64,000 nucleotides of DNA, from positions 64,001-128,000 of IMG/VR virus record IMGVR_UViG_3300029288_000067. The stretch is one strand, 5' to 3'. Below, one piece after another: positions 54-59,349 of this stretch (positions are counted from its first letter, which is position 1; each line of letters starts with the position of its first letter). A program made the position numbers and the translations under genes. This stretch comes from a virus. Its lineage: Duplodnaviria; Caudoviricetes. Under the pieces are notes generated by a model that searched no databases, was not told the origin of the DNA, and saw only the letters and a list, made by a program, of their open reading frames with translations.

Positions 54-82
54 ATATTACCGCAAACAGCGTAAAACTTCAA
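54..82 (-). promoter_or_regulatory. repeated sigma70-type (early) promoter TTGAAG-N17-TAATAT
   Basis: Minus strand reads TTGAAG ttttacgctgtttgcgg TAATAT; the TGA in the -35 box is the stop of ORF 79..264. Confidence 0.85.
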
Positions 83-264
83 ATTCTTTCAAAAATAAAT
101 TTTCCGGAACTATCAGTCACCCACTCCAAAACCTCTCCGGGGCAACAAAATGCTTGTGCTTGTTTTATTGCATTCTTGGGGGAAATGGCATGTAGTTTTA
201 TTTTACGGGAATAGTCCTCGTGGGAATCTTTGATTTTTGCAAACCAAATCTGTATTTGTTCCAT
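79..264 (-). CDS. hypothetical protein
   Basis: 61-aa ORF abutting the upstream gene; ends in the promoter -35 box. Confidence 0.6.
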   Translation of the reverse strand: MEQIQIWFAKIKDSHEDYSRKIKLHAISPKNAIKQAQAFCCPGEVLEWVTDSSGKFIFERI

Positions 265-265
265 A

Positions 266-550
266 TTACTTCTTCTTTTTTGGTTTTACAACATCTTCCT
301 CTTCGGGGTCTTCATCCTCTCCCTCGGGCTCCATTTTAAACCCGATAGCTTCTGGAAGTTCTTCTTCTTCCCCCTGAGCTTGTTGCACTTGGGCATTGAA
401 TGCTTCGATCCCTAATTCAATAAAGAAGCGGATTTGTTGGGAGACTGACCGCAATTCATTTTTTGCAGAACTTTTTAAGGCAAAATATAGTTCTTCGGGC
501 AGAGTAATTTTAACACATTTGTTGTCGGATTTCTTTTTTCTACATGCCAT
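266..550 (-). CDS. Arc/ribbon-helix-helix-like DNA-binding protein with acidic tail
   Basis: VKITLPEELYFALKSSAKNELRSVSQQIRFFI matches the Arc/CopG RHH pattern. Confidence 0.65.
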   Translation of the reverse strand: MACRKKKSDNKCVKITLPEELYFALKSSAKNELRSVSQQIRFFIELGIEAFNAQVQQAQGEEEELPEAIGFKMEPEGEDEDPEEEDVVKPKKKK

Positions 551-583
551 AAAATATCCCGCCTTTCTATTTTTTCATCCTTG

Positions 584-612
584 TTGAAAGTAACAGCAAG
601 TTATCGTATACT
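584..612 (+). promoter_or_regulatory. sigma70-type promoter TTGAAA-N17-TATACT, probably giving a leaderless mRNA
   Basis: Exact 17-nt spacer; ATG at 619 lies 6 nt after the -10 box. Confidence 0.7.
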
Positions 613-618
613 GTGAAA

Positions 619-1080
619 ATGAAAAAAAATCCTTGGAAAAATTTTCGAAGTCTGGTAGGAAGATTATTCCCTCAACTTTTGGATATTCAACGGGCTTGTA
701 TTACTGCCTATCAAAGAGTTACCCGTGGGTGGGCAGATGAAGACGTGTGGAGCATCGATTATCATCTCTGTGAGGTTGTCCCAGAAATGTTGGAACAATT
801 GAAAAAAGATAAAAATGGTGTTCCACAAAAATACATAATGAAAATTTACGAGGAAAGAGGATTGGATGTCCGAGATTCCTTTTGTGATATTCCCGAGGAG
901 ATAATTGAAGAGGCAGATAAAAGATTCACGCAATCTATTGATAAAATGATTGCCGGGTTTAAAGCACACAAACAAATTTCAGACTGGGATTTTACGCCGG
1001 AAACTCACCTGGAATTAGATAGGATTTATCGAGAGGGTATGCAAAAATTTGTGGACGATTTCGAAAATCTTTGGTGGTGA
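619..1080 (+). CDS. hypothetical phage protein
   Basis: Long ORF behind a promoter, divergent from the RHH gene. Confidence 0.75.
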   Translation: MKKNPWKNFRSLVGRLFPQLLDIQRACITAYQRVTRGWADEDVWSIDYHLCEVVPEMLEQLKKDKNGVPQKYIMKIYEERGLDVRDSFCDIPEEIIEEADKRFTQSIDKMIAGFKAHKQISDWDFTPETHLELDRIYREGMQKFVDDFENLWW

Positions 1081-1082
1081 AA

Positions 1083-4204: not shown

Positions 4205-4233
4205 ATATTACCCTAAGACCCTTACTTATTCAA
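4205..4233 (-). promoter_or_regulatory. repeated early promoter TTGAAT-N17-TAATAT
   Basis: Motif match, 17-nt spacer. Confidence 0.75.
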
Positions 4234-7319: not shown

Positions 7320-7348
7320 ATATTACCGCAAGACCCTCAAAAATTCAA
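7320..7348 (-). promoter_or_regulatory. repeated early promoter TTGAAT-N17-TAATAT
   Basis: The -35 TGA is the stop of the Nudix gene. Confidence 0.8.
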
Positions 7349-7950
7349 ACAATTCCTTTATTTTTTGCATCCTGTAAAATCATTTTTGCCCGCCAACCGA
7401 TATCCGGATTGGACATAACATTCTCAAAGGTTGTCCAGATAGTATCCATGTTGGCTTCAAATAAATTTTCTGGATCTTTCTTCTCCGGGGGCATACGGTT
7501 GACATCAATCAAGAACCCATAGACTGTTTCATCTGTAGAAGTTCCCACTAAATATTCCCCCGTCTTTTTCAAACGATCTTTGTTTACTGTATATCCGGCC
7601 TCTTCTTTTACCTCTTCGATAACAATATCCTCTACGGACAATTCCGGCTTATCGAGGGACCCCGTGAAGGCATCAACAATAAATTTTTTGTAGGGAGAGG
7701 AATAAGATTTCAAGATCCCAAACTCATTGTTGTGGGAGGGATCATACAACACAAAAGCAACGGAGTTTTTTCCAAGTCTTTGTACATAATAAAACCACCC
7801 GTTTTCCTCGCTGCCATGCCGAAGAATTTCAAGGTATTTTTTCTTTTTCTTGAATGCCGGGGTTTTGTATATTGACTCTGTTTTGAAGGTCTGTATTAAT
7901 TTTTTGAATTCATCCGTTATTTTTGCCAGCTTGGAGTATCTTGAAATCAT
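7345..7950 (-). CDS. Nudix hydrolase carrying the shared N-terminal tag
   Basis: Nudix box GSLDKPELSVEDIVIEEVKEEAGY; N-terminus MISRYSKLA. Confidence 0.8.
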   Translation of the reverse strand: MISRYSKLAKITDEFKKLIQTFKTESIYKTPAFKKKKKYLEILRHGSEENGWFYYVQRLGKNSVAFVLYDPSHNNEFGILKSYSSPYKKFIVDAFTGSLDKPELSVEDIVIEEVKEEAGYTVNKDRLKKTGEYLVGTSTDETVYGFLIDVNRMPPEKKDPENLFEANMDTIWTTFENVMSNPDIGWRAKMILQDAKNKGIV

Positions 7951-9656: not shown

Positions 9657-10108
9657 TTGCTTTCCCTTTCGGACATCCAGAATGAAAGAAGTTTCTCCGC
9701 GTCTTTCCGTTCAATTCCGAGACCATTAAGGGCAATTAAAGTTGCCAGCGGTGTTTCTTTTCCGGCCTGAAAAGCCATTCCAACTCTTGAAACCCCGGGG
9801 ATATTTTCAACTTTCAGAACAAGCTCTTTTGCAAGCCGATCCTTTTTTTCCTTAGCAGTTTCAAGACGAGAACTCCCAATAAAATTCTTAACCATCACCG
9901 GTTGATCCTTTTTCAATTTTGCAAGACTCTTTTCACCCCAGTACGTGGGGGGATTCCCATTACAAGAAGCCATTGCCCCCCGACGTTCCGGGAGAAGCTC
10001 AACAATTTTTACCGCATACACAATCACAGTTTTTACAAGGGTATTGCCCATACGGGTTTTAAAAGTCTGATACAGAACCATCCCATTTTGCAATTTTTCG
10101 TATTTCAT
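9653..10108 (-). CDS. hypothetical protein
   Basis: GGAGG SD after the promoter at 10138. Confidence 0.7.
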   Translation of the reverse strand: MKYEKLQNGMVLYQTFKTRMGNTLVKTVIVYAVKIVELLPERRGAMASCNGNPPTYWGEKSLAKLKKDQPVMVKNFIGSSRLETAKEKKDRLAKELVLKVENIPGVSRVGMAFQAGKETPLATLIALNGLGIERKDAEKLLSFWMSERESK

Positions 10109-10137: not shown

Positions 10138-10166
10138 ATATTACCCGGAGCCCCCTATTTATTCAA
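10138..10166 (-). promoter_or_regulatory. repeated early promoter TTGAAT-N17-TAATAT
   Basis: Motif match. Confidence 0.8.
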
Positions 10167-11122: not shown

Positions 11123-11151
11123 ATATTACCCGGAAACCGGCGAAACTTCAA
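11123..11151 (-). promoter_or_regulatory. repeated early promoter TTGAAG-N17-TAATAT
   Basis: Motif match. Confidence 0.85.
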
Positions 11152-12582: not shown

Positions 12583-12611
12583 ATATTACCCGAGCCCCAA
12601 CAAAACTTCAA
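12583..12611 (-). promoter_or_regulatory. repeated early promoter TTGAAG-N17-TAATAT
   Basis: Motif match. Confidence 0.85.
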
Positions 12612-13872: not shown

Positions 13873-13901
13873 ATATTACCACAACGGCAATAAAACTTCA
13901 A
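13873..13901 (-). promoter_or_regulatory. repeated early promoter TTGAAG-N17-TAATAT
   Basis: Motif match. Confidence 0.85.
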
Positions 13902-18183: not shown

Positions 18184-18212
18184 ATATTACCCCGAGAGTG
18201 ACAAAACTTCAA
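18184..18212 (-). promoter_or_regulatory. repeated early promoter TTGAAG-N17-TAATAT
   Basis: Motif match. Confidence 0.85.
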
Positions 18213-21672: not shown

Positions 21673-21701
21673 ATATTACCCTTTAGGGGGTAAAACTTCA
21701 A
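21673..21701 (-). promoter_or_regulatory. repeated early promoter TTGAAG-N17-TAATAT
   Basis: The -35 TGA is the stop of 21698..22312; ATG lies 6 nt downstream of the -10 box. Confidence 0.85.
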
Positions 21702-27022: not shown

Positions 27023-27051
27023 ATATTACCGCAAGGGGGGCAAAACTTCAA
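27023..27051 (-). promoter_or_regulatory. repeated early promoter TTGAAG-N17-TAATAT
   Basis: The -35 TGA is the stop of 27048..27539. Confidence 0.85.
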
Positions 27052-29109: not shown

Positions 29110-29138
29110 ATATTACTAGGAGGGTCCCAAAACTTCAA
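29110..29138 (-). promoter_or_regulatory. repeated early promoter TTGAAG-N17-TAATAT
   Basis: ATG at 29103 lies 6 nt downstream of the -10 box. Confidence 0.85.
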
Positions 29139-32050: not shown

Positions 32051-32079
32051 ATATTACCACTACAAGGGTGAAACTTCAA
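32051..32079 (-). promoter_or_regulatory. repeated early promoter TTGAAG-N17-TAATAT
   Basis: Overlaps the 3' end of the HD gene. Confidence 0.85.
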
Positions 32080-34230: not shown

Positions 34231-34259
34231 ATATTACCGGATAGGCAACAAAACTTCAA
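34231..34259 (-). promoter_or_regulatory. repeated early promoter TTGAAG-N17-TAATAT
   Basis: The -35 TGA is the stop of 34256..34684. Confidence 0.85.
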
Positions 34260-35848: not shown

Positions 35849-35877
35849 ATATTACCGGATGCCTTCGGAAACTTCAA
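35849..35877 (-). promoter_or_regulatory. repeated early promoter TTGAAG-N17-TAATAT
   Basis: The TAA of the -10 box is the stop of 35852..36337. Confidence 0.85.
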
Positions 35878-37973: not shown

Positions 37974-38002
37974 ATATTACCGCGAGAGCAACAAAACTTC
38001 AA
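37974..38002 (-). promoter_or_regulatory. repeated early promoter TTGAAG-N17-TAATAT
   Basis: Motif match. Confidence 0.85.
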
Positions 38003-41456: not shown

Positions 41457-41479
41457 ACAAACCCTCCGGGATAAAATAA

Positions 41480-41513
41480 AATAGGTGCCTGGGTATTAAC
41501 CCAGACACCTATT
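41480..41513 (-). terminator. intrinsic terminator nested in an SD-occluding stem
   Basis: AATAGGTGTCTGGGT...ACCCAGGCACCTATT followed by TT. Confidence 0.7.
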
Positions 41514-41538
41514 CGGAGGATATTATGAAATTAAGAGG

Positions 41539-41856
41539 TTATTCTTTGTAGTCAAACAACTTTATCGGGTGGTCTTCGGGGAAACGACTATCGGAGGTAT
41601 ATATGAAACTCCCACCGAAACAGAACCAGACATCTTCTGACCCGGGAAACAGTGGTTCACCCCGAGGGATCTGCTTTCCGAATTGTTCCACTGTGATCAA
41701 CTTTACAGCAGGACAATCCTTTGTCGGCTCCGAGATCTCAGGAATGCCTGCGCCAATCAGTGTAATTTCTTTTTTGTCATGAAGAATGCAACTTTTGGAA
41801 TGGTATGTCCCTCGGTAAATATCACAGCGAAGTCCCTTTTGAATTTTATTTTCCAT
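41539..41856 (-). CDS. hypothetical phage protein
   Basis: AAGGAG SD after the promoter at 41893; FGGSFIYTSDSRF. Confidence 0.7.
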   Translation of the reverse strand: MENKIQKGLRCDIYRGTYHSKSCILHDKKEITLIGAGIPEISEPTKDCPAVKLITVEQFGKQIPRGEPLFPGSEDVWFCFGGSFIYTSDSRFPEDHPIKLFDYKE

Positions 41857-41892
41857 ATATCCACTCCTTGGGGTTTTTGTTCTTACAGGAAG

Positions 41893-41921
41893 ATATTACC
41901 GTGAGACCCATAAAACTTCAA
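41893..41921 (-). promoter_or_regulatory. repeated early promoter TTGAAG-N17-TAATAT
   Basis: The -35 TGA is the stop of 41918..42289. Confidence 0.85.
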
Positions 41922-42289
41922 ATGTTGAAGATGATGGCAAGATCTTCAAGAAAATTCAAGGTTTCCTCGTGGCTACCCTTCAATGTTAGAGCATTTTCAA
42001 TGATTCTCTCCATAGGCAATTTTCGAATTGCTTCCCGCAGATTTTTCACGGTAATCCCTGTCTCTTCCATGGCGTCTCGTTTGAACTTAAGATTCAAATT
42101 TCTTTGGGCGTCTGCTTTTGTTTTTTGATATTGTTTCCAGACCTCCATTTGTTTTTCATAATCGACCAAAGCAACCAAATGATTCTTTACCGCTTCGGCA
42201 TTCAGCATTCCCTTTTCAGTGAGGAAAGGAGCTTTTGGTTTTGCCATGTAAGGCATATCATTTTCTGCAGAATAATTTTCAAGATTCAT
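41918..42289 (-). CDS. hypothetical protein
   Basis: AAGGA SD. Confidence 0.7.
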   Translation of the reverse strand: MNLENYSAENDMPYMAKPKAPFLTEKGMLNAEAVKNHLVALVDYEKQMEVWKQYQKTKADAQRNLNLKFKRDAMEETGITVKNLREAIRKLPMERIIENALTLKGSHEETLNFLEDLAIIFNI

Positions 42290-42313
42290 AAATTTTTCCT
42301 TTCTGTATTTAAA

Positions 42314-42475
42314 TTACCAACCATTCTTGCGAAGAAGAAAAGTTTCAATACTCACCACAACAACCGACAACAGGATTACTGGGAGATACACCGTGGGATT
42401 GCAGAAGTAACAGACACCAACAGAGAGAGTTGTCCAGAGAAAGGCATCCAATTTGTAAGCATCTCGGGGGGTCAT
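42314..42475 (-). CDS. small membrane protein (53 aa, not in ORF track)
   Basis: ACAGGAG SD after the promoter at 42510. Confidence 0.55.
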   Translation of the reverse strand: MTPRDAYKLDAFLWTTLSVGVCYFCNPTVYLPVILLSVVVVSIETFLLRKNGW

Positions 42476-42509
42476 GTATTTTCTCCTGTATGTTTTTTCT
42501 TACAAGGAT

Positions 42510-42538
42510 ATATTACCGCGAGGGGTATAAAACTTCAA
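42510..42538 (-). promoter_or_regulatory. repeated early promoter TTGAAG-N17-TAATAT
   Basis: Motif match. Confidence 0.85.
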
Positions 42539-42545
42539 ATCTTTT

Positions 42546-44129: not shown

Positions 44130-45022
44130 GCGGCAGATCCTTTTGTTACCAATTCTAATTTTTTCTGCATCTTTTTGATTCTACCCTCTAGTTTTTGTTG
44201 GATATACTGTGATGGGATTTTATCCGAATTCCAGCCCATTTTTCTTACTTCTTCTTGTTTCCAGAATCTTTTTGCTTTTTCTTGAATATCGTTCGGGAAA
44301 AAAGACAAAGGATATTGTTGCGCGGGGCTCGGTAATTCCGGCAATCGTTTATCCACTTTATGTTGTTCCCGGAATTTTACTCCGGAATAATCAAATTCGG
44401 TAAATTTAAACTCGGGATCATATACAACGGAAATTCTTTCCGGGAAGGAGAGTTGATTCACCTTTTCCACATCCGCCTTATATTTTCCCAAGATGGTATC
44501 CATCTTCAGTTTTTCCACAAGAAGTCTTGCAAGGGATTTAGAAGTATTTCCAACACTCTTCACAAGATCTTTTTCATCTTTTGTTACGAGACCTAAGAGA
44601 ATAGGGATGGTTTCTGCAGATACTGCTTTTGTTGCCCCATCGGGGAGTTGCACAACAAACTCATGAACAATCAATCTCCCCGTTTCATCATTCAAAGATG
44701 GATTATCCCAATCCGATACCCGCTTTTCAATTGTTCCTTCAAGATCATCCTCTGCCAATTCCCACTTGTATTGCCATTTATACGAGAGTAATTTTGCTCC
44801 GGAGGGTCCTGTAATTGGTGGGTTGAAAACAATAGTTTCCACAGGTCTTCCCCGGCCCACTTCCAAATTGGAGTATTTTTGTATTTCCATAGAAGAGATA
44901 TTACCCTCTGCCCCCAAGAAGTTCAAAGTAGATTCCTTTTTTGAGCTTTCTTCCGGAGTAGGCTTAGGAATAAAATTTGGATTAGAGAACCATTCGGCGA
45001 GGTTTGAAAATTTTCGGATCAT
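44126..45022 (-). CDS. tagged hypothetical protein
   Basis: MIRKFSNLA; GPSGAKL..Y.W, RVSDW. Confidence 0.7.
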   Translation of the reverse strand: MIRKFSNLAEWFSNPNFIPKPTPEESSKKESTLNFLGAEGNISSMEIQKYSNLEVGRGRPVETIVFNPPITGPSGAKLLSYKWQYKWELAEDDLEGTIEKRVSDWDNPSLNDETGRLIVHEFVVQLPDGATKAVSAETIPILLGLVTKDEKDLVKSVGNTSKSLARLLVEKLKMDTILGKYKADVEKVNQLSFPERISVVYDPEFKFTEFDYSGVKFREQHKVDKRLPELPSPAQQYPLSFFPNDIQEKAKRFWKQEEVRKMGWNSDKIPSQYIQQKLEGRIKKMQKKLELVTKGSAA

Positions 45023-46583: not shown

Positions 46584-46585
46584 TA

Positions 46586-46846: not shown

Positions 46847-46848
46847 AA

Positions 46849-47413: not shown

Positions 47414-47435
47414 CCCCGGGCATTTCTACCCGGGG
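47414..47435 (-). terminator. intrinsic terminator
   Basis: CCCCGGG...CCCGGGG followed by TTTCTTTT. Confidence 0.7.
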
Positions 47436-47445
47436 CTGGTTTATC

Positions 47446-47853
47446 TCAAATCTTTCTCTTAGGGGGTCTTCCTCTTGGATCTGTTCCAGGAAGATTGGGG
47501 GTCATATCGTATTCTGCCCGCTCTTTTGCAATTGCTTCATCCACAACTTTCATGGGGGTTTCCAAACGCATATCCTTCAAGTCTTCCATCTTTTGTTCCA
47601 TTGGGATTTTCCCGGGGTTTGTATAAATAGAGTCAACAAAAGTCATCATGAGGTGTTTTTTGCCCGAGGTAAGGGGTCTATATTGATTACCTTTAATTGT
47701 TTCCCAATAGGTCTCCCCAAACAAATCCCAGCTTCCAGTCAAATCATCATCATTGGCATCCATAGCATAAAAATCAATGTTATGCCTATTCTTAAATTCT
47801 TCCCATGTCTTGGAGAAAATAGCAGTTTTCTTTATACTAAGTTTCTTAATCAT
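47446..47853 (-). CDS. hypothetical protein with tag-like N-terminus
   Basis: MIKKLSIKKTA; AAGGA SD. Confidence 0.7.
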   Translation of the reverse strand: MIKKLSIKKTAIFSKTWEEFKNRHNIDFYAMDANDDDLTGSWDLFGETYWETIKGNQYRPLTSGKKHLMMTFVDSIYTNPGKIPMEQKMEDLKDMRLETPMKVVDEAIAKERAEYDMTPNLPGTDPRGRPPKRKI

Positions 47854-47870
47854 ACTTTTACTGTTCCTTT

Positions 47871-49307: not shown

Positions 49308-49990
49308 ACCCGCAAAATTTCCTTTGTAATAATAGAATCTACCGGGTGTATATCTATTTTATCGTATGCAGAGGGGAGTTCTGAAATAATAACCCCGTAT
49401 TTTTCCAAAACCTCTTCACAATTATTAAGAGACAATGAGGAAATTATATCCTTTATTTCTTCTTCGGAGACACCAACACGAGAAAGATAATCTGCAATTG
49501 CAGGGGCAATATCTTCCTCAACAGACGCCATTTTCAATTGTGTTGAAGCCAACTTGAACCGTTGCAATAGTTTCTCGAAAGATGTCTTATCGAGGTATTT
49601 GTATACTCGGATCAAATGTTTGCAAAGATACCTATTACTATCCGGATCCCGAATTACCGGGGGCCTATTTTCCACATTCCCGTCAATATGGTAACCAAAC
49701 TGAGAGGCATAAAAAGCGGAGCCATAATACAAAAATGCAGGGCAGCTACATTTCAACAACACTTCTTCTTTTACGGGGACATGCCAATTTTGATCAATAA
49801 GCTTAAAAGTGACATCCGGAAAAATTACAGAAGCAATGTGGCCTTTGGGGTTAGAATAAGACTCCAAACATCGAACAACAAAAGAAAAACGACGAAGATT
49901 TTTCCGTGATTTAATCCCAAGGATATTTCCATTTTCGGCTTTGTCCTTGGGCTTTTTTGAAGTCAGACGGTAAAGGGTTTCAAAATTCAT
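49304..49990 (-). CDS. SWIM-type Zn-finger protein
   Basis: CSCPAF...CKHL. Confidence 0.65.
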   Translation of the reverse strand: MNFETLYRLTSKKPKDKAENGNILGIKSRKNLRRFSFVVRCLESYSNPKGHIASVIFPDVTFKLIDQNWHVPVKEEVLLKCSCPAFLYYGSAFYASQFGYHIDGNVENRPPVIRDPDSNRYLCKHLIRVYKYLDKTSFEKLLQRFKLASTQLKMASVEEDIAPAIADYLSRVGVSEEEIKDIISSLSLNNCEEVLEKYGVIISELPSAYDKIDIHPVDSIITKEILRV

Positions 49991-50007
49991 TACCAATCCA
50001 TTTATTT

Positions 50008-50040
50008 GAAACCTCCCCGCTTTTAACACAGGGAGGTTTC
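50008..50040 (-). terminator. hairpin (terminator-like or SD-occluding)
   Basis: GAAACCTCCC...GGGAGGTTTC. Confidence 0.55.
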
Positions 50041-50048
50041 AAAATTAC

Positions 50049-50372
50049 TTACATTTTAGATGCTCTTCCACGCTTTGGTGCTGGTTGTTCAATCTTTGTT
50101 TCTACGAGGGGGATAACTTCCATATCCTTTTTATCTTCGCCCTCAATTGCTTTCTTCAACTCTTCCTGCGTGTTAACTTCCACTGCTTTTGGGGGCTGTG
50201 GAGTTTCATCTTTCTTTACTTCATTTTTGACATTCTTCTTTGTTTCAAGAATAAAACCTTTTTCGATCAATCCCTTTTTAAGGGTTGGGTTATCTACAAA
50301 AAGGGAATCGGGGATATCCTGCCCGGGCAAATAGGTCTTATTATTGATGCTCAAGGGATTTACAACCTTCAT
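50049..50372 (-). CDS. hypothetical protein, Lys/Glu/Pro-rich tail (possible head-associated)
   Basis: AGGAG SD; NNKTYLPGQDI. Confidence 0.6.
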   Translation of the reverse strand: MKVVNPLSINNKTYLPGQDIPDSLFVDNPTLKKGLIEKGFILETKKNVKNEVKKDETPQPPKAVEVNTQEELKKAIEGEDKKDMEVIPLVETKIEQPAPKRGRASKM

Positions 50373-50433
50373 ACGTACTGGCTCCTACATAATAAAAATA
50401 TTATTCTCTTCACAAAAAGAAAGAGAATATCAC

Positions 50434-51027
50434 TTACTTACTAATAGAGATCTCACATTCCAGGCAATTCCAATGTTCTTTGTCTTCTTCCAGGGGTTTA
50501 TAGCAATTTGGGCAAATTGGAACTTTTCCGAAATATTGCAATTTCTCTTCCCGGGCGACTCGTCTTGTGATTGAAGCAATAAACCCCCAGTTGGGGTTAT
50601 GTTCCTCTCTCCACGGGGCCGGGACCTTTACTTTTGCAACACCCCATTTCCTCAATCCATTTTCTTTTACATCAATCTCCATCAAACCACATTCAATAGG
50701 AATTTCTTCCGGCTTTATCAATCCTACAGGGGCAGCAAAATAAAATTGATTGCTGAAAATTAAGGCTTGTCTTCTTTTCAGAGGATTTTTCATCTCTTTC
50801 AAGAAATCCCCTCTGTTTACTTTTATCTCAAAGGCAATCTTTGCATAATGGTCACATGGGAATAAAGAAAAAACAAAGAAATCTATTCTTTGTTCTGTTG
50901 CTCCTTTTCCTTCCCCGGGGAGATTGTATCCCGTACCAATCCTCAATTCAGGAAAACATGCATATCGTTCCCGTCTGCTATTGATGTACTTGCACCGTAA
51001 AACCTCTGTTATCTCTTTACTGGTCAT
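50434..51027 (-). CDS. MmcB-family PD-(D/E)XK nuclease-like protein
   Basis: RID, FEIKVNRGDFLKE...K, FYFAAP.GLI..EEIP..CGL. Confidence 0.75.
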   Translation of the reverse strand: MTSKEITEVLRCKYINSRRERYACFPELRIGTGYNLPGEGKGATEQRIDFFVFSLFPCDHYAKIAFEIKVNRGDFLKEMKNPLKRRQALIFSNQFYFAAPVGLIKPEEIPIECGLMEIDVKENGLRKWGVAKVKVPAPWREEHNPNWGFIASITRRVAREEKLQYFGKVPICPNCYKPLEEDKEHWNCLECEISISK

Positions 51028-51268
51028 GTTTGCCCCTATCCAAAAGAAATTGTTTGTAGGAGTATATCTTAGCCCCTTGTTGGATTGCAAGTAAATATTT
51101 GGATTTTCGCAAATCATAATGGGGATGAATTGGATGATCTTGGAACCATGCTAATTTCATCCCTATTTTTTCTGCAAAAACATGAAGCTCACATGTAGTA
51201 TCTGCCCACATGTGAGCCCAATATCCTTCACTTTTTCCGTAAAATGTTAATTTATCAACGTACACCAT
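51017..51268 (-). CDS. DUF4031-family protein
   Basis: MVYVD, HM.AD...ELH.FA.KIG...WFQ, HYDL. Confidence 0.8.
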   Translation of the reverse strand: MVYVDKLTFYGKSEGYWAHMWADTTCELHVFAEKIGMKLAWFQDHPIHPHYDLRKSKYLLAIQQGAKIYSYKQFLLDRGKHDQ

Positions 51269-51560
51269 ATGAGGTTGTCACACAAAATGAGCAATTACCC
51301 ATGCTTAATTCTTTTCTCAGAACATCTAAAACAATCTCAGCTTCTTCTTGGGTGATTTGATATTTATTCAAAACCCCCAGAGAGATTTCTTCATCTGCAA
51401 TAAATTGCCTATTCCCACAACCTTTTATCGGGGTGTCATCCAGATCCGTTGTTACCCCGAAATCCAAATACGAAGCTGGGACCCCATTGATGAGGAATTC
51501 TTCCAAATCACACATATCTTTACAACGACGACAAGTGAGGATCATTTTTTTCTCGCTCAT
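51255..51560 (-). CDS. Cys-containing hypothetical protein
   Basis: CDL..F.ING, GCGN.QF, C.FC. Confidence 0.6.
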   Translation of the reverse strand: MSEKKMILTCRRCKDMCDLEEFLINGVPASYLDFGVTTDLDDTPIKGCGNRQFIADEEISLGVLNKYQITQEEAEIVLDVLRKELSMGNCSFCVTTSYGVR

Positions 51561-51993
51561 AAGGGAAATTCATCCTTCCTAAATTGTATAATCTTTCCTG
51601 TTTATTTCTGTTTTCATTTCTCAAGAAAGAATTGTTGAAATACCGAATAATACGGGGGAATAATTTGTATTCAATGATATCCGACAAAGAGGCAATCTTA
51701 CAGGGTCTTTCTAACCTGCCCCACAAAACCCCGGAATCATAGGGAAACTCAACCCTTTTCACCCCTCCCGGGGCAGCAGAGTGCCCAAGATAAAGAGCCG
51801 GATTCCATTCCACCTCAACAATAAACCCACGACCATTGGTTTTCCGTTTTTCTCGGGTATTTGTCTTTTCGCTGTCCATACCGGAGATTTTCAAAGCAAG
51901 CATTTTTCTGTGCAAAAACTTTATCAGCCGGAGTCTCTCAGTTTTCTTTGTAAGCGGGGGAAAACCCCGCAACGTTGCAAAATTATATTTCAT
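51520..51993 (-). CDS. hypothetical protein
   Basis: ORF fills the gap; start uncertain. Confidence 0.45.
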   Translation of the reverse strand: MKYNFATLRGFPPLTKKTERLRLIKFLHRKMLALKISGMDSEKTNTREKRKTNGRGFIVEVEWNPALYLGHSAAPGGVKRVEFPYDSGVLWGRLERPCKIASLSDIIEYKLFPRIIRYFNNSFLRNENRNKQERLYNLGRMNFPYEREKNDPHLSSL

Positions 51994-51999
51994 TTTTAC

Positions 52000-52031
52000 A
52001 AAGGGAGGGGATTTTTATGTCCCCTCCCTTT
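52000..52031 (-). terminator. intrinsic terminator
   Basis: AAAGGGAGGGGA...TCCCCTCCCTTT. Confidence 0.7.
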
Positions 52032-52039
52032 TCCCATTC

Positions 52040-54318
52040 TTAGAAGTATTCTTTTACTCGCTCCATCTTCATATACAGGGTTTTATCCCCTGCTTCATAG
52101 GCATAGTTCTTCTTGGGGTCAAGAACAAAGCCTTCGAAGTTTCCACCGGTCAACAGTTTTGCCATCTTCAGACCGGCCAATTTTCCCCGGATAGAAAACA
52201 ACTTGGATTTCGTCTGTCGGAGTTGATCCTGCAGCCAATCACGAGTTTTCACAACAGGAGCATTCAAATCGATCTTATCCTGGGGGGCATTTCGCTCAAT
52301 CCTTGATTTTGCCTCTGACATAACTTCGAAAGCAACTGTCAGATTCTTCTTTGCCTTCAAAGCAACATCAACATCATCCACTTTCGGAAGACTGGAAATA
52401 CCCTTGAAAACAAACTCAAAGGCCCGGGTCTCGTAACTGTCACACTCATCGTTCTTTGGAGTCTTATTTTCCACCCCGGCATACGAGCCTGATTTTTCAA
52501 TCCCACTGGCTTCAAGGACCGCAATCTGTGCCGCTGTTTTGCCCTCAAAAATACCAACCTTCTTCTGTGCCGCAGTGGAGTTTGATTCGAACTGCTTCCA
52601 GTAATAGTTGAGGTATTTCTGATAGGCTTCTTCCTTCACCAATTCGGAAGCAAGAGAGAACACCGTAGAAGCAGAGATATTCTCATCGTACATTGCATTG
52701 ATGACAGGGAGCTTGTTCAATTTCACCACAGCACAAACAAACTTCTTCCCATGAGCATTCTCGATATCTTTTTGTGCCGTTTTGTCCCCGAGGATTGTTT
52801 CTTCCAGAATCTTCTTTTTCTTCTGGATCTTTTCAAAAGTTTCCTGGGGCATCAATGCAACCAACTTGTTCATGTTGAGATTGCCATCTTTGATGATCGT
52901 GTGGTTTCGATACACGAAAGCATCCAGAGTTGAAGGTAGACCCACAGAGCTTGCTTCATTTTCATCCAAAGCAACCGTTCCAAAAATTGTCATTCGGAGA
53001 GAGAGATTGCAACGTTCTTTGTTGAAAACAAAGTTCTCGAAGGGGGCAAGCACCGTGTCTTTCCCAAACTTGAACCGGTTCTGTGCATCCACGGTTTTCT
53101 TCCCAATACGCTTATACTCCACAGACTCATTGTGGAATGGGACATAGTAGGATTCTTCCGCAAGGATATTCAACAGGTCATATGCACAGAAAGCATCTTT
53201 TGCCGGGAGATAATTCCCTTTTGCCTGCCCATCAACATATCGATCCCCCGTGTTGAATGCTGCCTTTTCCAGCAACAATTGATGATTTGCACATTCATCA
53301 AAAGTATAAGAAGACATATGGGAGTCAATGAGTGCTTTATCCCCAAGAGTTGCAAGAACTTCCAGAGATTCTTTCCGGCGATTGCATAGTACAGAGAATA
53401 TGCATAGGCATACAGGAAATTCCGCACCGTGGGCTCCGCAACCTCTTCTTTCAGATCTTTTGTCTCATACGGGGCATCATTGTAATGGAACCGGAAATCA
53501 CCCTTATCTGAAACAATAAAGAACTGATTCTTTTTCTTATCCAACTTGGAGAGATACAATTCCAGATTGGACATTTTTGCAAATTTCCGGTTGAGGTAAA
53601 TGCCATCAACACCCATAGGATATTCCAGATGAACCTGTTCCACCCGGGAATCTGAAATACGCTCGAAATTTCTCTGCCAGATCGAGAGATACTCCGAGAT
53701 TTGCGAAGAATGCGTGAAAATACCGAACTCCGTTGCGGCAGAAAGCTTCTTCAGGAAGTCCACATTGTAGTAGTTTCCGTAACCAATGGTATTGAATGAA
53801 AGGATGTCCTTATTGAGACTCTTCACCAATTCCAAGCTTCTCCGCTCTTCTTCAACATTACCCCAAGGAACCCCACAAGGAATGCCATCGGTAAACAAGG
53901 TAGCAGAAATATTGGGGCACATGTCCCTCAAATCATTTACAATGTCTGCAACTTCCTTGATAGGCTCCGAGAAACAAGTTGTTCCAAGAGAAATCCGAAG
54001 ATCATCCAATTTTCGAATCAATTCAGGGGATTTCACAGCACCCTTCACAAGAGTTTTGTATTGCCCGGGAGAACTGAACCAAACAACAGAAATAAGGTCT
54101 TCTTTACCCATCAACTCCACAACACTCTTCAACTGATCCACCAGATTATCCAACAAGGAGTACATTGACCCCGAACGGTCGATAATAACGATCTGATGGA
54201 TTTTCGGGACAACAACGGACTTCACTTCAGTAATGACTTCATCATCATCCTGATTTACCGTGGTCAAAACAAGGTCTCGGCCACTAAGCAACTTCACTAC
54301 ATTCCGATAAAAATTCAT
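52040..54318 (-). pseudogene. vWA-domain protein split by a 1-nt frameshift near 53383
   Basis: MIDAS DRSGS, TTCF, FTDG in the 5' part; reading continues naturally in another frame (NRRKESLEVLATLGDKALIDSHMSSY) into ORF 52040..53317. Confidence 0.7.
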
Positions 54319-54370
54319 GTTTCCTCCATGTATATTTGTGCAGGACACTCAGACATTTTACTGCTTTTTC

Positions 54371-54399
54371 AGAATACAATAATTGCCTTGAAATTTCAA
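54371..54399 (-). promoter_or_regulatory. sigma70-type promoter TTGAAA-N17-TATTCT
   Basis: 17-nt spacer, upstream of the vWA gene. Confidence 0.55.
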
Positions 54400-54404
54400 A
54401 TGAT

Positions 54405-55283
54405 TTATCGTTCCCCATATTCCTTTTGTGTCAGACACTTGAAAGAAATTTCCGTGGGAGTGACCGGGATAACCATTGTGTGCTCATCCAGTTGAACACA
54501 CTTGTTAAGGCATGTATCAAAATAGATCGGAAAATGATTATCCGCCCCATGGATCTTCAAACGCACAATTGGGCATTCCATCTTAACGATAAAAAATCCG
54601 GGTTTCAGATCTTTCAAAAGAACGGTCTGATACTGTTCGCACTTGAAAACCATACCATTTGACTCAAACTTGTTTTCCATGCCGTTTTTCTCTCCTGATA
54701 AATATTTTTCAAACTGGTTTTTCAAAGATTTTAACAAATCCTCGGACCACAAATACCGGGCATACTGATCATGCGACCCGGCTTTTTCTATAATTGCATA
54801 TTTGGAATCAATTGCAAACACTGTGGGGGAATAAGGATGTTCGGAATTTTTCAATCCCAACCTCATCAAAAGTTTTCCCACAACCTTTGCATCAGTTCCC
54901 AACTTTTTTCCCAGATCGGTTTGGGTTTTGTATGTCTGCTTTTTCTTCGGATTTTTTTGAGTTTCATTCCAGAAAGTATCCGCTCTTTTCATTACATTGG
55001 ATATCCTATCATTTCCATCAAAAAACTCAGAATGAATCTCCCAAATAATTTTTGGGATTAAATTATTTTTTGCAGCTTCCTCAATCCATTTTGCCACATC
55101 ATAACCCGTTTTACCTTTTCCCAAGTCATAATCAAAAGATATGTGGGTAACATTCTTACTTTGCAGATAATTGACACACTCTTGATAGCTTGTGACATGG
55201 ACTACGGCTCTTTCACTATTGGAAATAACCCGCAACCAATTTGGAACCGGGCGAACATCATCGAGCCAAACAAAATATTTCAT
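54405..55283 (-). CDS. cyclic-phosphate-processing receiver domain fused to HTH-like and a third module
   Basis: WLDDVR, ISFDYDLG..KTGYDVAKWI; QTDLGKKLG...VGKLL. Confidence 0.65.
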   Translation of the reverse strand: MKYFVWLDDVRPVPNWLRVISNSERAVVHVTSYQECVNYLQSKNVTHISFDYDLGKGKTGYDVAKWIEEAAKNNLIPKIIWEIHSEFFDGNDRISNVMKRADTFWNETQKNPKKKQTYKTQTDLGKKLGTDAKVVGKLLMRLGLKNSEHPYSPTVFAIDSKYAIIEKAGSHDQYARYLWSEDLLKSLKNQFEKYLSGEKNGMENKFESNGMVFKCEQYQTVLLKDLKPGFFIVKMECPIVRLKIHGADNHFPIYFDTCLNKCVQLDEHTMVIPVTPTEISFKCLTQKEYGER

Positions 55284-55325
55284 ATATGTTTCCTTCACAT
55301 CCTATTACAGGAGTATGCAGACATT

Positions 55326-55667
55326 TTACCACTCTTTTTGATCAAAATCAACACTTTCCCAATATTTTTCAGCTTTTTGCATTGCTCGAACAATATTTCT
55401 TGCCCCTGTTGGATTTTGAGAATGAACCGACCACTCCAATTTTTGAATTCTTTTTTCGAATGCTGCTTTTTCAATCCAACAAGCGACATCGTAACCGGAA
55501 AGCCCCTCTCCAAGATCATGATCAAAATCAAGATAGACAACATCTCCTGTTTCCAGAAGGGAGATTGCCTCCTCGTAGTTCTTGCAGATATGGGTAAACC
55601 CTATTGCGGTGTATGTGGGGTGGGTTGGAATAGACCTCACATCATCCAGCCAAATCCGTATTTTCAT
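55326..55667 (-). CDS. cyclic-phosphate-processing receiver domain protein
   Basis: IWLDDVR, LDFDHDLG..SGYDVA.WI, VHSQNP.G. Confidence 0.8.
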   Translation of the reverse strand: MKIRIWLDDVRSIPTHPTYTAIGFTHICKNYEEAISLLETGDVVYLDFDHDLGEGLSGYDVACWIEKAAFEKRIQKLEWSVHSQNPTGARNIVRAMQKAEKYWESVDFDQKEW

Positions 55668-55685
55668 ATTTTCTCCCGGGGAATA

Positions 55686-55910
55686 TTACCAATACCGCAG
55701 GGTAAACCCCTCTTCTTTGTTGAAGGACAAAACCCGAGATTCTTCATGCACTTCAGCGCACACCCTTGAGGTTTCTTCTTGTACGGGGACAAAATTCTGC
55801 CCTTCCCAAATCTTGTAGGGGATCTTCAACTCTTCCAACTTTTGGACAGTCATCTTTGTCTCCATGTATGTTCTGCTCCCTTGATAAATTACCAACATAT
55901 TTCCCTCCAA
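55686..55910 (-). CDS. hypothetical protein
   Basis: GGAGG SD after the promoter at 55928. Confidence 0.55.
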   Translation of the reverse strand: MEGNMLVIYQGSRTYMETKMTVQKLEELKIPYKIWEGQNFVPVQEETSRVCAEVHEESRVLSFNKEEGFTLRYW

Positions 55911-55927
55911 AGAATTCTTATATCGAG

Positions 55928-55956
55928 ATATTACCCGGACCCCTCGGAAACTTCAA
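55928..55956 (-). promoter_or_regulatory. repeated early promoter TTGAAG-N17-TAATAT
   Basis: The -35 TGA is the stop of the helicase gene. Confidence 0.85.
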
Positions 55957-57680: not shown

Positions 57681-57704
57681 TTTCTATATGCCTTTTATTG
57701 TATT

Positions 57705-58088
57705 TCAAGGAAATTCAACAGATTCCCCGGACCATTTTTCCAGCTTCTTGTGCAGGCTGTTCATAACCCGGATGAATCCTCGATGCTTGTTTTCAGTATA
57801 TCCTTCGATCTCAAATCGAGCTTGTTCTTCTGATCTCTCTAGGATTGTTCCCCCGGAGAATGAGTCAAGGACGAGATACTTCTCTTCTACAGACAAATCT
57901 TTGGACTCGGGAAGCTCCCCGGATTCAACCATCTTTTCCAATTTTTTACAAGCATCGTACGTTTGTTCTTCGGTAAGATTCCCGAAAGGAAGATCTGGCT
58001 CTGCATCCATGAACAATGCTTGGTAAAGGCAGTCTGGCAATTCCAACCGGTCGAGAAGAATTTCCTGCTCCCGTTTTGTGAGTTTCAC
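57705..58088 (-). CDS. hypothetical protein
   Basis: GTGA overlap with the upstream gene. Confidence 0.65.
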   Translation of the reverse strand: MKLTKREQEILLDRLELPDCLYQALFMDAEPDLPFGNLTEEQTYDACKKLEKMVESGELPESKDLSVEEKYLVLDSFSGGTILERSEEQARFEIEGYTENKHRGFIRVMNSLHKKLEKWSGESVEFP

Positions 58089-58387
58089 AGGTGAGTATCC
58101 AATCCGGTGTTTTTCGTGAAGGACACTTGCAACATATCCCAGTAGATGTCATTTTCTTCCACAGCAACTGTTACTTTCACCCCACGGATTTTCAAATACT
58201 GCACATCGTACAGATCTTTCCCGTTGAGGGTGATTCTCACTCCCGAGATATTCTTTGCATTCCGACCCACCCGAAAGGAGAGGGTATTGTCCGAGTAAGC
58301 AAAGTTTTTGGAACCGGTCATTGCAATGAACTTGTTCCCGCCCAACTGTGCGAGGATTGTATTTGCCATTTCTTTACCGGTAGTCAT
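58085..58387 (-). CDS. hypothetical phage early protein
   Basis: ANTILAQLGGNKFIAMTG...DLY...TGL.T.L; follows the promoter at 58422. Confidence 0.75.
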   Translation of the reverse strand: MTTGKEMANTILAQLGGNKFIAMTGSKNFAYSDNTLSFRVGRNAKNISGVRITLNGKDLYDVQYLKIRGVKVTVAVEENDIYWDMLQVSFTKNTGLDTHL

Positions 58388-58421
58388 TTGTTTTCCCCTT
58401 GGGTTTTGTTCTTACGAAGAT

Positions 58422-58450
58422 ATATTACCGCGAGGAGGACAAAACTTCAA
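58422..58450 (-). promoter_or_regulatory. repeated early promoter TTGAAG-N17-TAATAT
   Basis: The -35 TGA is the stop of 58447..59277. Confidence 0.85.
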
Positions 58451-59277
58451 ATCAGTGAGGAGATTTCTTTTACCCGCCCATCACTCTTCAAAAAGTCATG
58501 AATATCTTTTTCTGACTTCCATCCATCAATATTTGTGTTTCGCCCGGTATTTATCCAGAAAAACCATTTACCCTTACCATCCTTACGGGGAAAGCAACAC
58601 ATAGCATTTTCAAAGGACCTATTTTCTTTGTTGGATGAAATGTGCTTGTTGATCAATTCCAGATATTCGTGCCCCTTTGTATCGTACATGAGGGCTTCTT
58701 CTGCACTCTTTGGGTCTTCCTCAAAAATCTCCGTTCGAATATAAAACTCGTATTCCTGAGAAACTACCCGGGAAGTATCAAATGGATTCCGGCGAAAAAA
58801 GTCTGATAAGGAATTTCCCCCGAAAGGTCCATCTCTCTGGGACAACACCTCTTCCAACTCTTCCTTGGACACCTTTGCAATTTCCGAGGCTTTGTCACAG
58901 AGAGATTGTAACGGATTCATAGGATCGAATGCAAGAACAAGATCCGTAATAATTCCGGCAAGAATATCTGTTACCTGTTCTTCATTCTCTTTTAGCATCT
59001 TTCCCCAAAACCCATCGAAATAACAACATTGCCCGGATAATACCAGACTTCCTACACCGGGAATATTACAACCACCCTCACACTTGTAGATACCAACCTC
59101 CTGAGTGTGGAAAGATCCTGTGAGAACTTTTGTTCCAACCTGCGAAACTAGCCTCTGAAATACGCGACCAAACATAATTAGACCATAAGGCAGCTTATCA
59201 AACATATACTGCCCAGAAGACCGAAGATACTTTTCCTTTTCCAACAACCGCTTGCTCTCATTAACAATCTTTTCCAT
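58447..59277 (-). CDS. hypothetical protein
   Basis: ACAGGAG SD after the promoter at 59321. Confidence 0.7.
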   Translation of the reverse strand: MEKIVNESKRLLEKEKYLRSSGQYMFDKLPYGLIMFGRVFQRLVSQVGTKVLTGSFHTQEVGIYKCEGGCNIPGVGSLVLSGQCCYFDGFWGKMLKENEEQVTDILAGIITDLVLAFDPMNPLQSLCDKASEIAKVSKEELEEVLSQRDGPFGGNSLSDFFRRNPFDTSRVVSQEYEFYIRTEIFEEDPKSAEEALMYDTKGHEYLELINKHISSNKENRSFENAMCCFPRKDGKGKWFFWINTGRNTNIDGWKSEKDIHDFLKSDGRVKEISSLI

Positions 59278-59320
59278 ATATATGTCTCCTGTATTTTATT
59301 TCTGGATAAACAACATCAAG

Positions 59321-59349
59321 ATATTACCACGAGGGCAACAAAACTTCAA
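59321..59349 (-). promoter_or_regulatory. repeated early promoter TTGAAG-N17-TAATAT
   Basis: Motif match. Confidence 0.85.

Follow-up and report, generated by a model that had tools for sequence, protein, structure and literature searches.

Repeated promoter elements at gene junctions of an uncultured 224-kb phage and their comparison with the promoter early stem-loops of T4-type phages

Repeated promoters of T4-type phages and the element in this genome

The closest described counterparts of the element analysed here are the promoter early stem-loops (PeSLs) of the T4-type phages RB49/phi1, T4/PST, and KVP40/nt-1 (Arbiol et al., 2010, PMC2839356; Comeau et al., 2014, PMC4122927). Also comparable are the early promoters of T4, which have been termed 'uber' UP/-35/TGn/-10 promoters and have a consensus that extends beyond the sigma-70 elements (Hinton, 2010, PMC2988021). 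The DNA under study, hereafter the window, is a stretch of 64,000 nt from the 224-kb genome of an uncultured phage that derives from a landfill metagenome. It was found to contain 22 exact matches to TTGAA[G/T]-N17-TAATAT (TTGAAK at the -35 box), all on the minus strand and extending from 54-82 to 59321-59349 (Table 1); shuffled sequences contained 0.08 matches on average and never more than 1. The -10 box is preceded by GG in 21 of the 22 copies, and the prevailing copy reads TTGAAGTTT. An earlier sequence-only reading of the window had listed the same copies at the same positions. It had also called for a position-weight-matrix scan of the whole genome, and this resulted in a bimodal distribution, with 31 sites scoring at least 25 bits and the runner-up approximately 15 bits; 29 of the sites occupy the minus strand between 31 and 123 kb, and the other two lie on the plus strand at 203-205 kb. 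Variants with one mismatch or with spacers of 16 or 18 nt occurred at background level in the genome scan, which revealed neither half nor degraded copies, and the promoter class is thus all-or-none across the genome. A search by k-mer enrichment for a second repeated promoter class in the phage found none. A weak look-alike (TTGAAC...GGTAATAT; 15.7 bits) is located within a coding region at 44898..44926 (-).

Table 1. Positions of the promoter copies and associated features in the window
Position	Strand	Feature	Upstream gene end	Downstream genes and remarks
54..82	-	Promoter copy	-35 TGA is stop of 61-aa ORF 79-264	ATG 37 nt past -10 box
4205..4233	-	Promoter copy, variant TTGAATAAGTAA with stops in all three frames	333-aa ORF ends 12 nt in	Homologous gene pair in G001 lacks an intervening promoter (homology weak, 21-27%)
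7320..7348	-	Promoter copy	-35 TGA is stop of Nudix-like 201-aa ORF 7345-7950	
10138..10166	-	Promoter copy, variant TTGAATAAATAG	Stop ~4 nt before -35 box	
11123..11151	-	Promoter copy	Stop ~2 nt before -35 box	
12583..12611	-	Promoter copy	Stop abuts -35 box	
13873..13901	-	Promoter copy	Terminator hairpin directly upstream (13907-13932)	Sole window copy with a terminator
18184..18212	-	Promoter copy	Stop ~4 nt before -35 box	Tentative positional orthologue in G001, P9233
19321..19349	-	Promoter copy	368-aa ORF ends ~3 nt before -35 box	Homologue of the upstream ORF elsewhere in G001
21673..21701	-	Promoter copy	-35 TGA is stop	Leaderless gene (MKKYSAL...)
27023..27051	-	Promoter copy, leader subfamily CCTTGTAAGAAAA	-35 TGA is stop	orf87 and CCA-adding enzyme; positional orthologue in G001, P118053
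27952..27980	-	Promoter copy	~120 nt off	
29110..29138	-	Promoter copy, AG before -10 box		Leaderless phosphoesterase-like gene (MKLQIISDLHLEW)
32051..32079	-	Promoter copy	Stop (TAG) inside spacer, 20 nt in	
34231..34259	-	Promoter copy	-35 TGA is stop	
35849..35877	-	Promoter copy	Stop is TAA of -10 box	
37974..38002	-	Promoter copy, top score	Stop ~4 nt before -35 box	
41470..41514	-	Hairpin with T-rich tail		Upstream of orf54 and tail sheath gene; present in G001 with changed stem letters
41539..42545	-	Insertion		Phage-specific; two promoter-led cassettes between conserved genes
41893..41921	-	Promoter copy	-35 TGA is stop of orf123	orf105; second cassette of the derived insertion
42510..42538	-	Promoter copy		orf53 and orf123; start of the derived 1-kb insertion
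55928..55956	-	Promoter copy	-35 TGA is stop of 575-aa helicase	Positional orthologue in G001, P44273
58422..58450	-	Promoter copy		orf100, orf127, helicase; G001 orthologue P42232 leads directly into helicase
59321..59349	-	Promoter copy	HNH-domain gene and orf76 upstream	G001 orthologue, P41257

The conserved unit comprises TTGAAGTTTT, followed by CTCGCGGTAATAT, a semi-conserved leader, and a ribosome-binding site, for a total of approximately 65-75 nt. Its left edge is sharp, the information content being close to zero in the 30 nt of coding sequence upstream of the -35 box, and its conserved columns form a T-tract, a CTCGCGG block, and the bases immediately following the -10 box. Direct repeats with 60-80% identity, the longest of 71 nt, begin at the -35 box and extend as far as the start codon, and the repeat families of 60-71 nt reach the ATG with a conserved Shine-Dalgarno sequence and start codon at their 3' ends. 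The leader and ribosome-binding sequences that had been proposed to be shared by several copies are real (families D4-D6); however, ATACAGGAGA is also present in intergenic regions with no promoter, and it is therefore the general ribosome-binding consensus of the genome.

The likeness to PeSLs suggested earlier is partial. As in PeSLs, a promoter with a 17-nt spacer between its -35 and -10 boxes recurs together with a leader, a Shine-Dalgarno sequence, and a start codon that are likewise conserved. The -10 box, TAATAT, agrees with the TAWWAT consensus of nt-1/KVP40; the copies are interspersed among small genes, mostly orphans, of the variable portion of a large myovirus genome; and one insertion and one replacement were found in association with the copies. 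Unlike PeSLs, the copies show no degraded half-elements and lack AT-rich sequence in front, where the preceding gene runs up to or into the -35 box instead, and the stem-loop is absent before 29 of the 31. A convincing terminator hairpin directly precedes only the copies at genome positions 35060 and 77901 (window 13901), which bears out the earlier statement that a single copy in the window has a terminator directly in front. Folds predicted within the promoter spacer were weak and inconsistent, and no hidden stem-loop was found there. An association of the copies with indel breakpoints, assessed against a relative of 40-70% identity, is not statistically established.

Promoter behavior and the polymerase that may read it

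All copies are co-oriented with the genes and are situated 19-44 nt before start codons. At the two copies that precede leaderless genes (window 21701 and 29138), the ATG starts at the 7th base past the -10 box, and the tRNA-Met that follows the copy at genome position 59949 likewise has its first base there. Given the fixed strand and start-codon distance coupled with these three 5' ends at the 7th base, the copies behave as promoters, and all 31 are likely to represent a single class of strong promoters, with -35 and -10 boxes 17 nt apart, that head units of one to six genes. That the repeats instead have a different role in the DNA, for example in replication, packaging, or the binding of a protein, would accord with the limitation of the motif to one part of the genome, and start sites were predicted from sequence only; nevertheless, the constant strand and spacing, the coincidence of both ATGs and the tRNA 5' end with the predicted start, and the presence of an analogous element at the same junctions of a relative make this highly improbable. 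As promoters, the copies would head short operons, mostly of lineage-specific small genes and tRNAs, within the early/accessory half of a myovirus distant from T4. For this rare and uncultured lineage of 224-kb phage, they would represent the principal promoter of early type and provide a ready map of the transcription units, including leaderless messages and a tRNA with no 5' leader.

The host polymerase, carrying its primary sigma factor, probably transcribes from the copies. Their hexamers match the E. coli consensus (TTGACA/TATAAT) at 8 of 12 positions, the consensus of the actual host may differ from it, and a generic sigma-70 scan gave no match to the copies (scores below threshold). A resemblance to T4 early promoters is evident in the number of near-identical strong promoters, a consensus that extends beyond the hexamers, short early units, and a compact genome. 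The hexamers differ, being TTGAAG/TAATAT compared to GTTTAC/TATAAT, GG replaces TGn before the -10 box, and there is no UP element because coding sequence fills that space. An ADP-ribosyltransferase with a virion tag, encoded at window positions 22309-23337, could play the part of Alt.

It has also been considered that the promoters are specified by the phage, in the manner of the T4 middle promoter, with the 10-nt box of TTGAAGTTTT and the CTCGCGG block being bound by a phage factor or by a modified polymerase. This would explain both the all-or-none conservation and a concerted change of consensus, and it is consistent with the bimodal scores and their lack of weak copies, with the limited match to the sigma-70 consensus, and with the switch of all the orthologous sites in the relative G001 to another consensus, although separate hosts for the two phages would explain the latter equally well. 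Candidates for the factor are the ADP-ribosyltransferase, as an Alt-like polymerase modifier, and a conserved helix-turn-helix protein resembling sigma-70 region 4 (genome 221474-222115; 69% identical in G001), the match of which to region 4 is, however, below the Pfam cut-off. Homologues of a canonical phage sigma factor, MotA, AsiA, and sigma region 2 were not found in the genome, nor were matches to PF09158 or PF09010, and hence the phage-encoded MotA and AsiA that mark a T4 middle promoter are missing. With a 17-nt spacing and TTGA.../TA...T hexamers being what a primary sigma factor reads, recognition by a phage-specified factor appears unlikely, and reading by the host enzyme is preferred. 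The ADP-ribosyltransferase bears an N-terminal tag that is common to other proteins of this phage.

Gene ends within promoters and conservation of the junctions

Independent gene calls reproduced the earlier tallies of gene ends at the window copies. In eight, the upstream gene takes its stop codon from the TGA of the -35 box (ORF ends 79, 7345, 21698, 27048, 34256, 41918, 55953, and 58447); the stop lies inside the promoter in three (4233, 32079, and 35877) and at most 8 nt before it in nine, and the upstream gene ends farther away in two (13901 and 27980). Throughout the genome, upstream genes end in the -35 TGA at 12 of the 31 copies. The sequence-only reading had explained these ends by insertion of cassettes at the promoter and had proposed that the C-termini of the eight overlapping proteins be compared with homologues for truncation. 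TTGAAG offers a TGA in only one of three frames, and the frames of the 27 upstream genes ending at or beside a promoter are divided 14/9/4, which is close to chance; the TGA is used by 12 of the 14 genes in its frame. In two of these proteins, no truncation was apparent: the Nudix-like protein (ORF 7345-7950) has a complete domain, and the C-termini of the helicases from this phage and G001 are homologous to within 6 residues. Since the split among frames approximates chance and the overlap at the helicase gene is conserved, genes that end in the -35 box provide no evidence of insertion, and gene ends inside promoters should not be taken as recombination scars.

Compact phage genomes contain overlapping stop and start signals, such as ATGA and TAATG. 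The 4-nt overlap seen here (T-TGA-AG) is likewise one signal with two functions that arises by the loss of spacer DNA; it differs in that a promoter hexamer takes the place of the start codon as the second signal and in having outlasted a change of that hexamer at the helicase junction. Probably, the overlap of stop and promoter needs no recombination and is mostly a matter of ordinary genome compaction, the median intergenic gap being 15 nt. With such tight packing, each promoter would start where the preceding gene stops. Selection on the promoter would keep the TGA of TTGAAG as a permanent stop, and therefore a gene reaching it in that frame may lose its own stop codon with hardly any penalty, its end then falling within the -35 box; genes in the other two frames would keep their own stops 1-7 nt upstream.

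Few relatives were available for comparison. Megablast with 20 kb of the phage found no match among cultured phages, and the helicase had no homologue of greater than 33% identity among 5.8 billion proteins. The promoter pattern gave only six single chance matches in IMG/VR and more than 115 single matches in metagenome contigs, approximately the number expected by chance for 17 fixed bases, and no contig with two copies was present among those fetched. The sheath protein as a single IMG/VR query gave no match, and a 90%-conserved protein retrieved G001 and one 60% relative only; a close relative is thus absent from the IMG/VR searches. Sheath homologues do exist at 79% (P0009, on a 37-kb contig) and approximately 70% identity. 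Comparison of 30 window proteins with PHROGs and Pfam assigned mostly no function.

The sole usable relative was therefore G001, a phage of 197 kb with 40-70% protein identity. It carries 13 copies of T[TG]AAA[TA]-N17-TATATA, followed by TAAATAAGA, and its consensus (TTAAAT-N17-TATATA) differs from that of the present phage but is equally crisp. The upstream stop codon lies inside the -35 box in 4 of the 13 copies, and terminator hairpins accompany approximately six, so that G001 resembles the PeSL layout more closely. Promoters of the two phages occupy orthologous positions in at least six cases. At the helicase junction, the stop codon lies inside the -35 box of both phages, as TGA in TTGAAG and as TAA in the TTAAAT of G001, and so by this comparison the orthologous junctions are old and stable and not insertion scars. 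A promoter network located at the same gene junctions in a relative with another consensus would itself be old. A whole promoter set can thus, as far as these sister phages indicate, switch its consensus while holding the same gene junctions, and a stop codon embedded in the -35 box can survive the change.

Gene gain behind promoters and recombination between copies

The promoters are concentrated in the lineage-specific, gene-variable part of the genome. Only 17% of the genes in promoter territory are shared with G001, compared to 49% elsewhere, and the collinear late block has no copies; 13.4 kb free of promoters (window 42538-55956) falls within a block collinear with G001, which likewise has no promoter there. 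According to the sequence-only reading, the promoters head gene cassettes and serve as recombination junctions where one to six genes are inserted. The copies do head such units, and one two-cassette insertion and one replacement were found. The derived insertion, 1 kb in length, is made up of exactly two promoter-led cassettes and begins 7 nt after the stop codon of a conserved 221-aa gene; the genes that flank it are adjacent in four relatives (G001, G002, G003, and L138). In none of the four does the target site have a promoter copy, and hence the promoter was not the site of homologous crossover there, contrary to the second part of the proposal. The replacement is non-homologous and lies between orthologous promoters, with orf276 (after 59321..59349) in the place of orf123 of G001. 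Genes have further been gained or lost directly behind promoters, namely before the CCA enzyme, the helicase, and a phrog_2426 gene. Promoter-led cassette gain thus has partial support from comparison with a distant relative: one case shows new genes entering as promoter-led cassettes, and in several the position immediately behind a promoter is variable. The insertion adds one clean case of the gain of small genes by large phages as promoter-led cassettes.

These observations may also be read as recombination of the PeSL type, as documented in T4-type phages (PMC2839356, PMC4122927), in which the copies would act as direct repeats of 29-70 bp for homologous recombination, and the units between them would leave the genome as circles and integrate again elsewhere in the set of copies, shaping gene order. 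Such a process can coexist with compaction. The length and identity of the direct repeats, the location of the promoters in gene-variable territory, and the replacement and gene turnover behind promoters would all be expected from it, yet most of the extra genes are not followed by the second copy that integration of a circle would leave. In the collinear block, moreover, three of approximately ten variable intervals involve promoters relative to the distant G001 and 7 of ~10 do not, and the frequency of promoters at boundaries between shared and unique genes, again relative to this distant phage, is not significantly raised (10/36 vs 18/120). Of all neighboring pairs, the promoters of the derived insertion resemble each other most closely, but neighboring copies in general are no more alike than distant ones (p = 0.77). 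With half or degraded copies absent, six junctions unmoved since the split from G001, and no copy at the target site of the insertion, recombination between copies is possible but somewhat doubtful as the source of this arrangement, and compaction remains the preferred explanation of the overlaps.

Compaction alone does not explain the subfamily of copies with CCTTGTAAGAAAA leaders (genome 91051, 106538, 33066, 122450, and 105921), which also favors exchange of the PeSL type. Its members share more of their spacer and leader than column composition predicts, a level reached by approximately 0.1-0.2% of shuffles, and this resemblance points to the copying of promoter-leader modules. More speculatively, and with rather little likelihood, the ~70-nt promoter and leader may be a copy-and-paste module placed before new genes and sometimes between old ones, with the set kept uniform, and its consensus switched between sister phages, through recombination between copies or co-evolution with a recognition factor specified by the phage; such a module would be able to follow any reading frame safely by virtue of its embedded stop codon and of the three-frame-stop variant TTGAATAAxTrA.

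An all-against-all protein comparison identified no paralogous genes paired with promoter copies. The sole domain duplicate, between 38252-38446 and the C-terminus of 59584-61347 in the window, was rejected as a duplicated cassette; it stops short of the neighboring promoter. A putative promoter remnant at the insertion site (TAATAT/GTAATAC upstream of the hairpin in three phages) was likewise dismissed, there being no matching -35 box. The hairpin at this site is itself probably a terminator that insulates the late sheath operon, and it is possibly followed by a late-type promoter.

Sequence and predicted start point of the promoter class

All 22 minus-strand copies of TTGAAK-N17-TAATAT that the sequence-only reading had located in the window were recovered at the same coordinates, with shuffled sequences giving an expectation of 0.08. 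In the whole IMG/VR virus record, which comprises 224,066 bases and of which the window represents bases 64001-128000, there are 31 copies. All share the orientation of the surrounding genes: 29 lie on the minus strand at 31-123 kb, and the other two, at 203-205 kb, are on the plus strand. A weight matrix made from the copies themselves scored them at 25-43 bits over the 448 kb of both strands; the best other sites reached only about 15 bits. Permitting one mismatch in either hexamer, or a spacer of 16 or 18 nt, added matches at the background level that did not lie ahead of genes, and no degraded half-copies were found in this relaxed-pattern search; the class is all-or-none. Its conservation begins sharply at the first T of the -35 box, with zero information in the 30 nt upstream, and comprises TTGAAGTTTT, a CTCGCGG block before TAATAT and the two bases after it, while the leader up to the ribosome-binding site is more weakly conserved. 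Early promoters of T4 provide a precedent for extra consensus around the hexamers (PMC2988021).

A same-strand gene follows every copy, with 19-44 nt between the -10 box and the start codon, and two genes apparently have no room for a leader (Table). Their N-termini, MKKYSAL at copy 21701, which is a tag shared across the genome, and MKLQIISDLHLEW at copy 29138, a phosphoesterase-type start, look genuine. Together with a tRNA-Met, these provide three functional 5' ends that are independent of one another and lie at the canonical distance, which argue strongly that the copies are promoters with transcription starting at the seventh base after the -10 box. The predicted tRNA-Met transcript would thus have its mature 5' end from the outset, and cleavage by RNase P would be unnecessary. 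The hexamers match 8 of 12 positions of the E. coli consensus, which may not be that of the host, and were missed by a generic scan. No homologues of sigma region 2, MotA or AsiA were found in the genome, only a 213-aa protein with a sub-threshold sigma-70 region-4-like helix-turn-helix, and hence the reader of these promoters is likely the host polymerase with its primary sigma factor. The 213-aa protein could be a transcription factor in this group of phages.

Coordinates of the features discussed (window, genome or G001 positions as marked)
Feature	Position	Detail
Copies with TTGAATAAxT in place of TTGAAGTTTT	window 4205-4233, 10138-10166; genome 61410-61438, 203845-203873	four copies
Leaderless gene 1	window 21666-21701	ATG at 7th base after TAATAT of copy 21701
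Leaderless gene 2	window 29103-29138	ATG at 7th base after TAATAT of copy 29138
tRNA-Met	genome 59915-59949 (L006)	first base is 7th after -10 box of copy 59949
213-aa region-4-like protein	genome 221474-222115 (L131 1375-2016)	69% identical in G001
G001 promoters (loci L146-L155)	G001, e.g. 41257-41300, 42232-42275, 125934	TTAAAT-N17-TATATA, then TAAATAAGA
Derived insertion	window 41539-42545 (-)	specific to this phage
Sheath hairpin	window 41470-41514	followed by ATTTTATTTTATC and Shine-Dalgarno; upstream of orf54 and tail sheath gene
G001 counterpart of sheath hairpin	G001 61850-61900 (L134 about 9740-9790)	
Tandem PHROG 1479 paralogues	window 54405-55667	292 and 113 aa, 36% identical
Split PHROG 2426 homologue	window 52040-54348	VWA domain at N-terminus; ORFs 53170-54348 and 52040-53317 overlap in different frames
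64-aa ORF	window 38252-38478	60%-identical copy of last 62 residues of 587-aa HNH-domain protein (59584-61347)
M-I-x-K/R-Y/F-S-x-L proteins	window 7345-7950, 19353-20459, 21223-21666, 22309-25283, 43256-49307	shared N-terminal motif

Gene ends within the promoter

No close relative was found in the cultured-phage set, in IMG/VR or among the metagenome-contig matches listed, and no homologue of the helicase exceeded 33% identity. Unannotated assemblies contain tail sheath homologues with 79% and about 70% identity, and an alignment-based IMG/VR scan identified a 197-kb record, G001 (sheath 70% identical), as well as several shorter or more distant contigs. Between G001 and the phage, 119 of 362 genes are reciprocal best hits, typically at 40-70% identity. 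The TTGAAK-N17-TAATAT motif was not found in G001, which has an equally crisp class of 13 copies: T[TG]AAA[TA], a 17-nt spacer ending TTTTTTAC, and TATATA, in the same layout as that of the phage, T-run after the -35 box included. At least six of these occupy gene junctions shared with copies of the phage: two flank the helicase, one follows the HNH-domain gene and another the homologue of genome 35131-36483, where both phages have a terminator hairpin, and two more precede the CCA-adding enzyme and the homologue of genome 205106-205573, respectively. A further two pairs are tentative.

Our own gene calls reproduced the overlap of upstream genes with the promoter: in the window, eight stop at the TGA of the -35 box, three inside the promoter, nine at most 8 nt upstream and two further away, the corresponding numbers for the whole genome being 12, 4, 11 and 4. 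Terminators are indeed rare in front of the copies (a hairpin at only two genome-wide). Upstream genes ending at or next to a promoter number 27, and their frames relative to it are distributed 14/9/4 (chi-square about 5.6, 2 df, p about 0.06); the number of TGA overlaps is as reading frame alone predicts. Of the 14 genes in the TGA frame, 12 extend to this stop, whereas only one gene reaches the TAA of the -10 box in the frame leading to it, the others ending 1-7 nt ahead of the -35 box. With the TTGAATAAxT sub-class, three of the four copies present stops in all three frames within their first 12 nt, and the third-frame stop of this variant serves two upstream genes. The simplest account would be that spacer DNA is lost in a tightly packed genome (median intergenic gap, 15 nt) and that, because the TGA within the promoter cannot mutate, a gene's own stop one or two codons upstream becomes redundant and decays.

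The overlap had been attributed to insertion of cassettes by recombination at the promoter, a mechanism which the frame counts render unneeded and which the conserved helicase junction contradicts. The helicase stop is the TGA of TTGAAG in the phage and the TAA of TTAAAT in G001, and the C-termini are homologous (...HSDWKI and ...HPDWFKKSPKKN, respectively); the junction is therefore old and stable, its overlap having outlived a change of hexamer rather than being the scar of a recent insertion. A stop within the -35 box occurs at 4 of the 13 G001 copies. Nor was the anticipated truncation of C-termini seen in the two proteins checked, the second being a Nudix-like protein with its stop in the -35 box and a complete domain. 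The helicase is encoded by one ORF in the phage and by two in G001.

Gene gain behind promoters

The promoters occupy the variable portion of the genome, in which only 17% of genes have a G001 homologue, compared to 49% elsewhere; a 13.4-kb promoter-free stretch of the window belongs to a block collinear with G001, where promoters are likewise absent. A conserved gene of 221 aa (window 42546-43211) is separated from orf54 and sheath, also conserved, by 1.0 kb of sequence that G001 and three further relatives (G002, G003 and L138) lack; in all four the gap is 108-168 nt. The insert consists exactly of promoter-orf53-orf123-promoter-orf105, starting 7 nt past the upstream stop and ending just ahead of a conserved hairpin. 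Its two promoters have the highest likeness among all neighbouring pairs, and, like the ancient promoter of the CCA operon, they belong to a subfamily with the leader CCTTGTAAGAAAA, whose likeness exceeds what column composition allows; neighbouring copies in general are no more alike than distant ones.

Elsewhere, unrelated genes lie between the orthologous promoter pairs 59349/58450 of the phage and 41257/42232 of G001. Phage-only genes follow promoters before the CCA enzyme (orf87), the helicase (orf100 and orf127) and the phrog_2426 gene (four), and G001 has extra small ORFs directly behind promoters at two sites. These comparisons indicate that small genes are gained and lost directly behind promoters. 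The four genes behind promoter 55956 include two tandem paralogues.

The proposed cassette insertion thus stands in part: the acquisition of genes led by a promoter is demonstrated in one case and suggested in several others. Evidence against crossover at the promoter is that no copy lies at the target of the insertion in any of the four relatives. No second promoter copy was found after the extra genes, 7 of about 10 variable intervals of the collinear block are promoter-free, and one breakpoint in this block falls within a gene. Promoters occur at 10/36 boundaries between shared and unique genes and at 18/120 between unique genes, a difference that is not significant. In this comparison with G001, at typically 40-70% identity, the promoter is a possible recombination junction.

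The model had been built on the promoter-early stem-loops (PeSLs) of T4-type phages, which are composed of an AT-rich stretch, a stem-loop, an early promoter, a Shine-Dalgarno sequence and a start codon, mark indels between close relatives, and give mini-circles (PMC2839356, PMC4122927). The phage set resembles PeSLs in having a promoter and a leader, in lying among variable small genes and in being associated with at least one insertion, but it lacks both stem-loop and AT-rich part, and its link to indel breakpoints is a putative one; it acts partly like PeSLs without being classed as such. The G001 layout, with terminator hairpins preceding or overlapping about 6 of 13 copies, is more PeSL-like.

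Neighbouring features

The sheath hairpin, kept in both phages despite different stem letters, is probably a terminator that keeps early read-through out of the late sheath operon; in G003 this position carries TTTTATAAATC, which hints at a late-type promoter. The PHROG 2426 homologue, a single 755-aa ORF in G001 (44345-46612), is split in the phage, which could reflect a frameshift, a pseudogene or programmed frameshifting. The 64-aa ORF, with a perfect 26-nt tandem duplication (38427-38478) at its 5' end, appears to be what is left of a gene that was mostly replaced, since it corresponds to the C-terminal end of a 630-aa gene located after the sheath gene in G001. An N-terminal M-I-x-K/R-Y/F-S-x-L is common to many unrelated proteins, some encoded directly behind promoter copies and most in the promoter-free block; for some of them, homologues lie elsewhere in G001.
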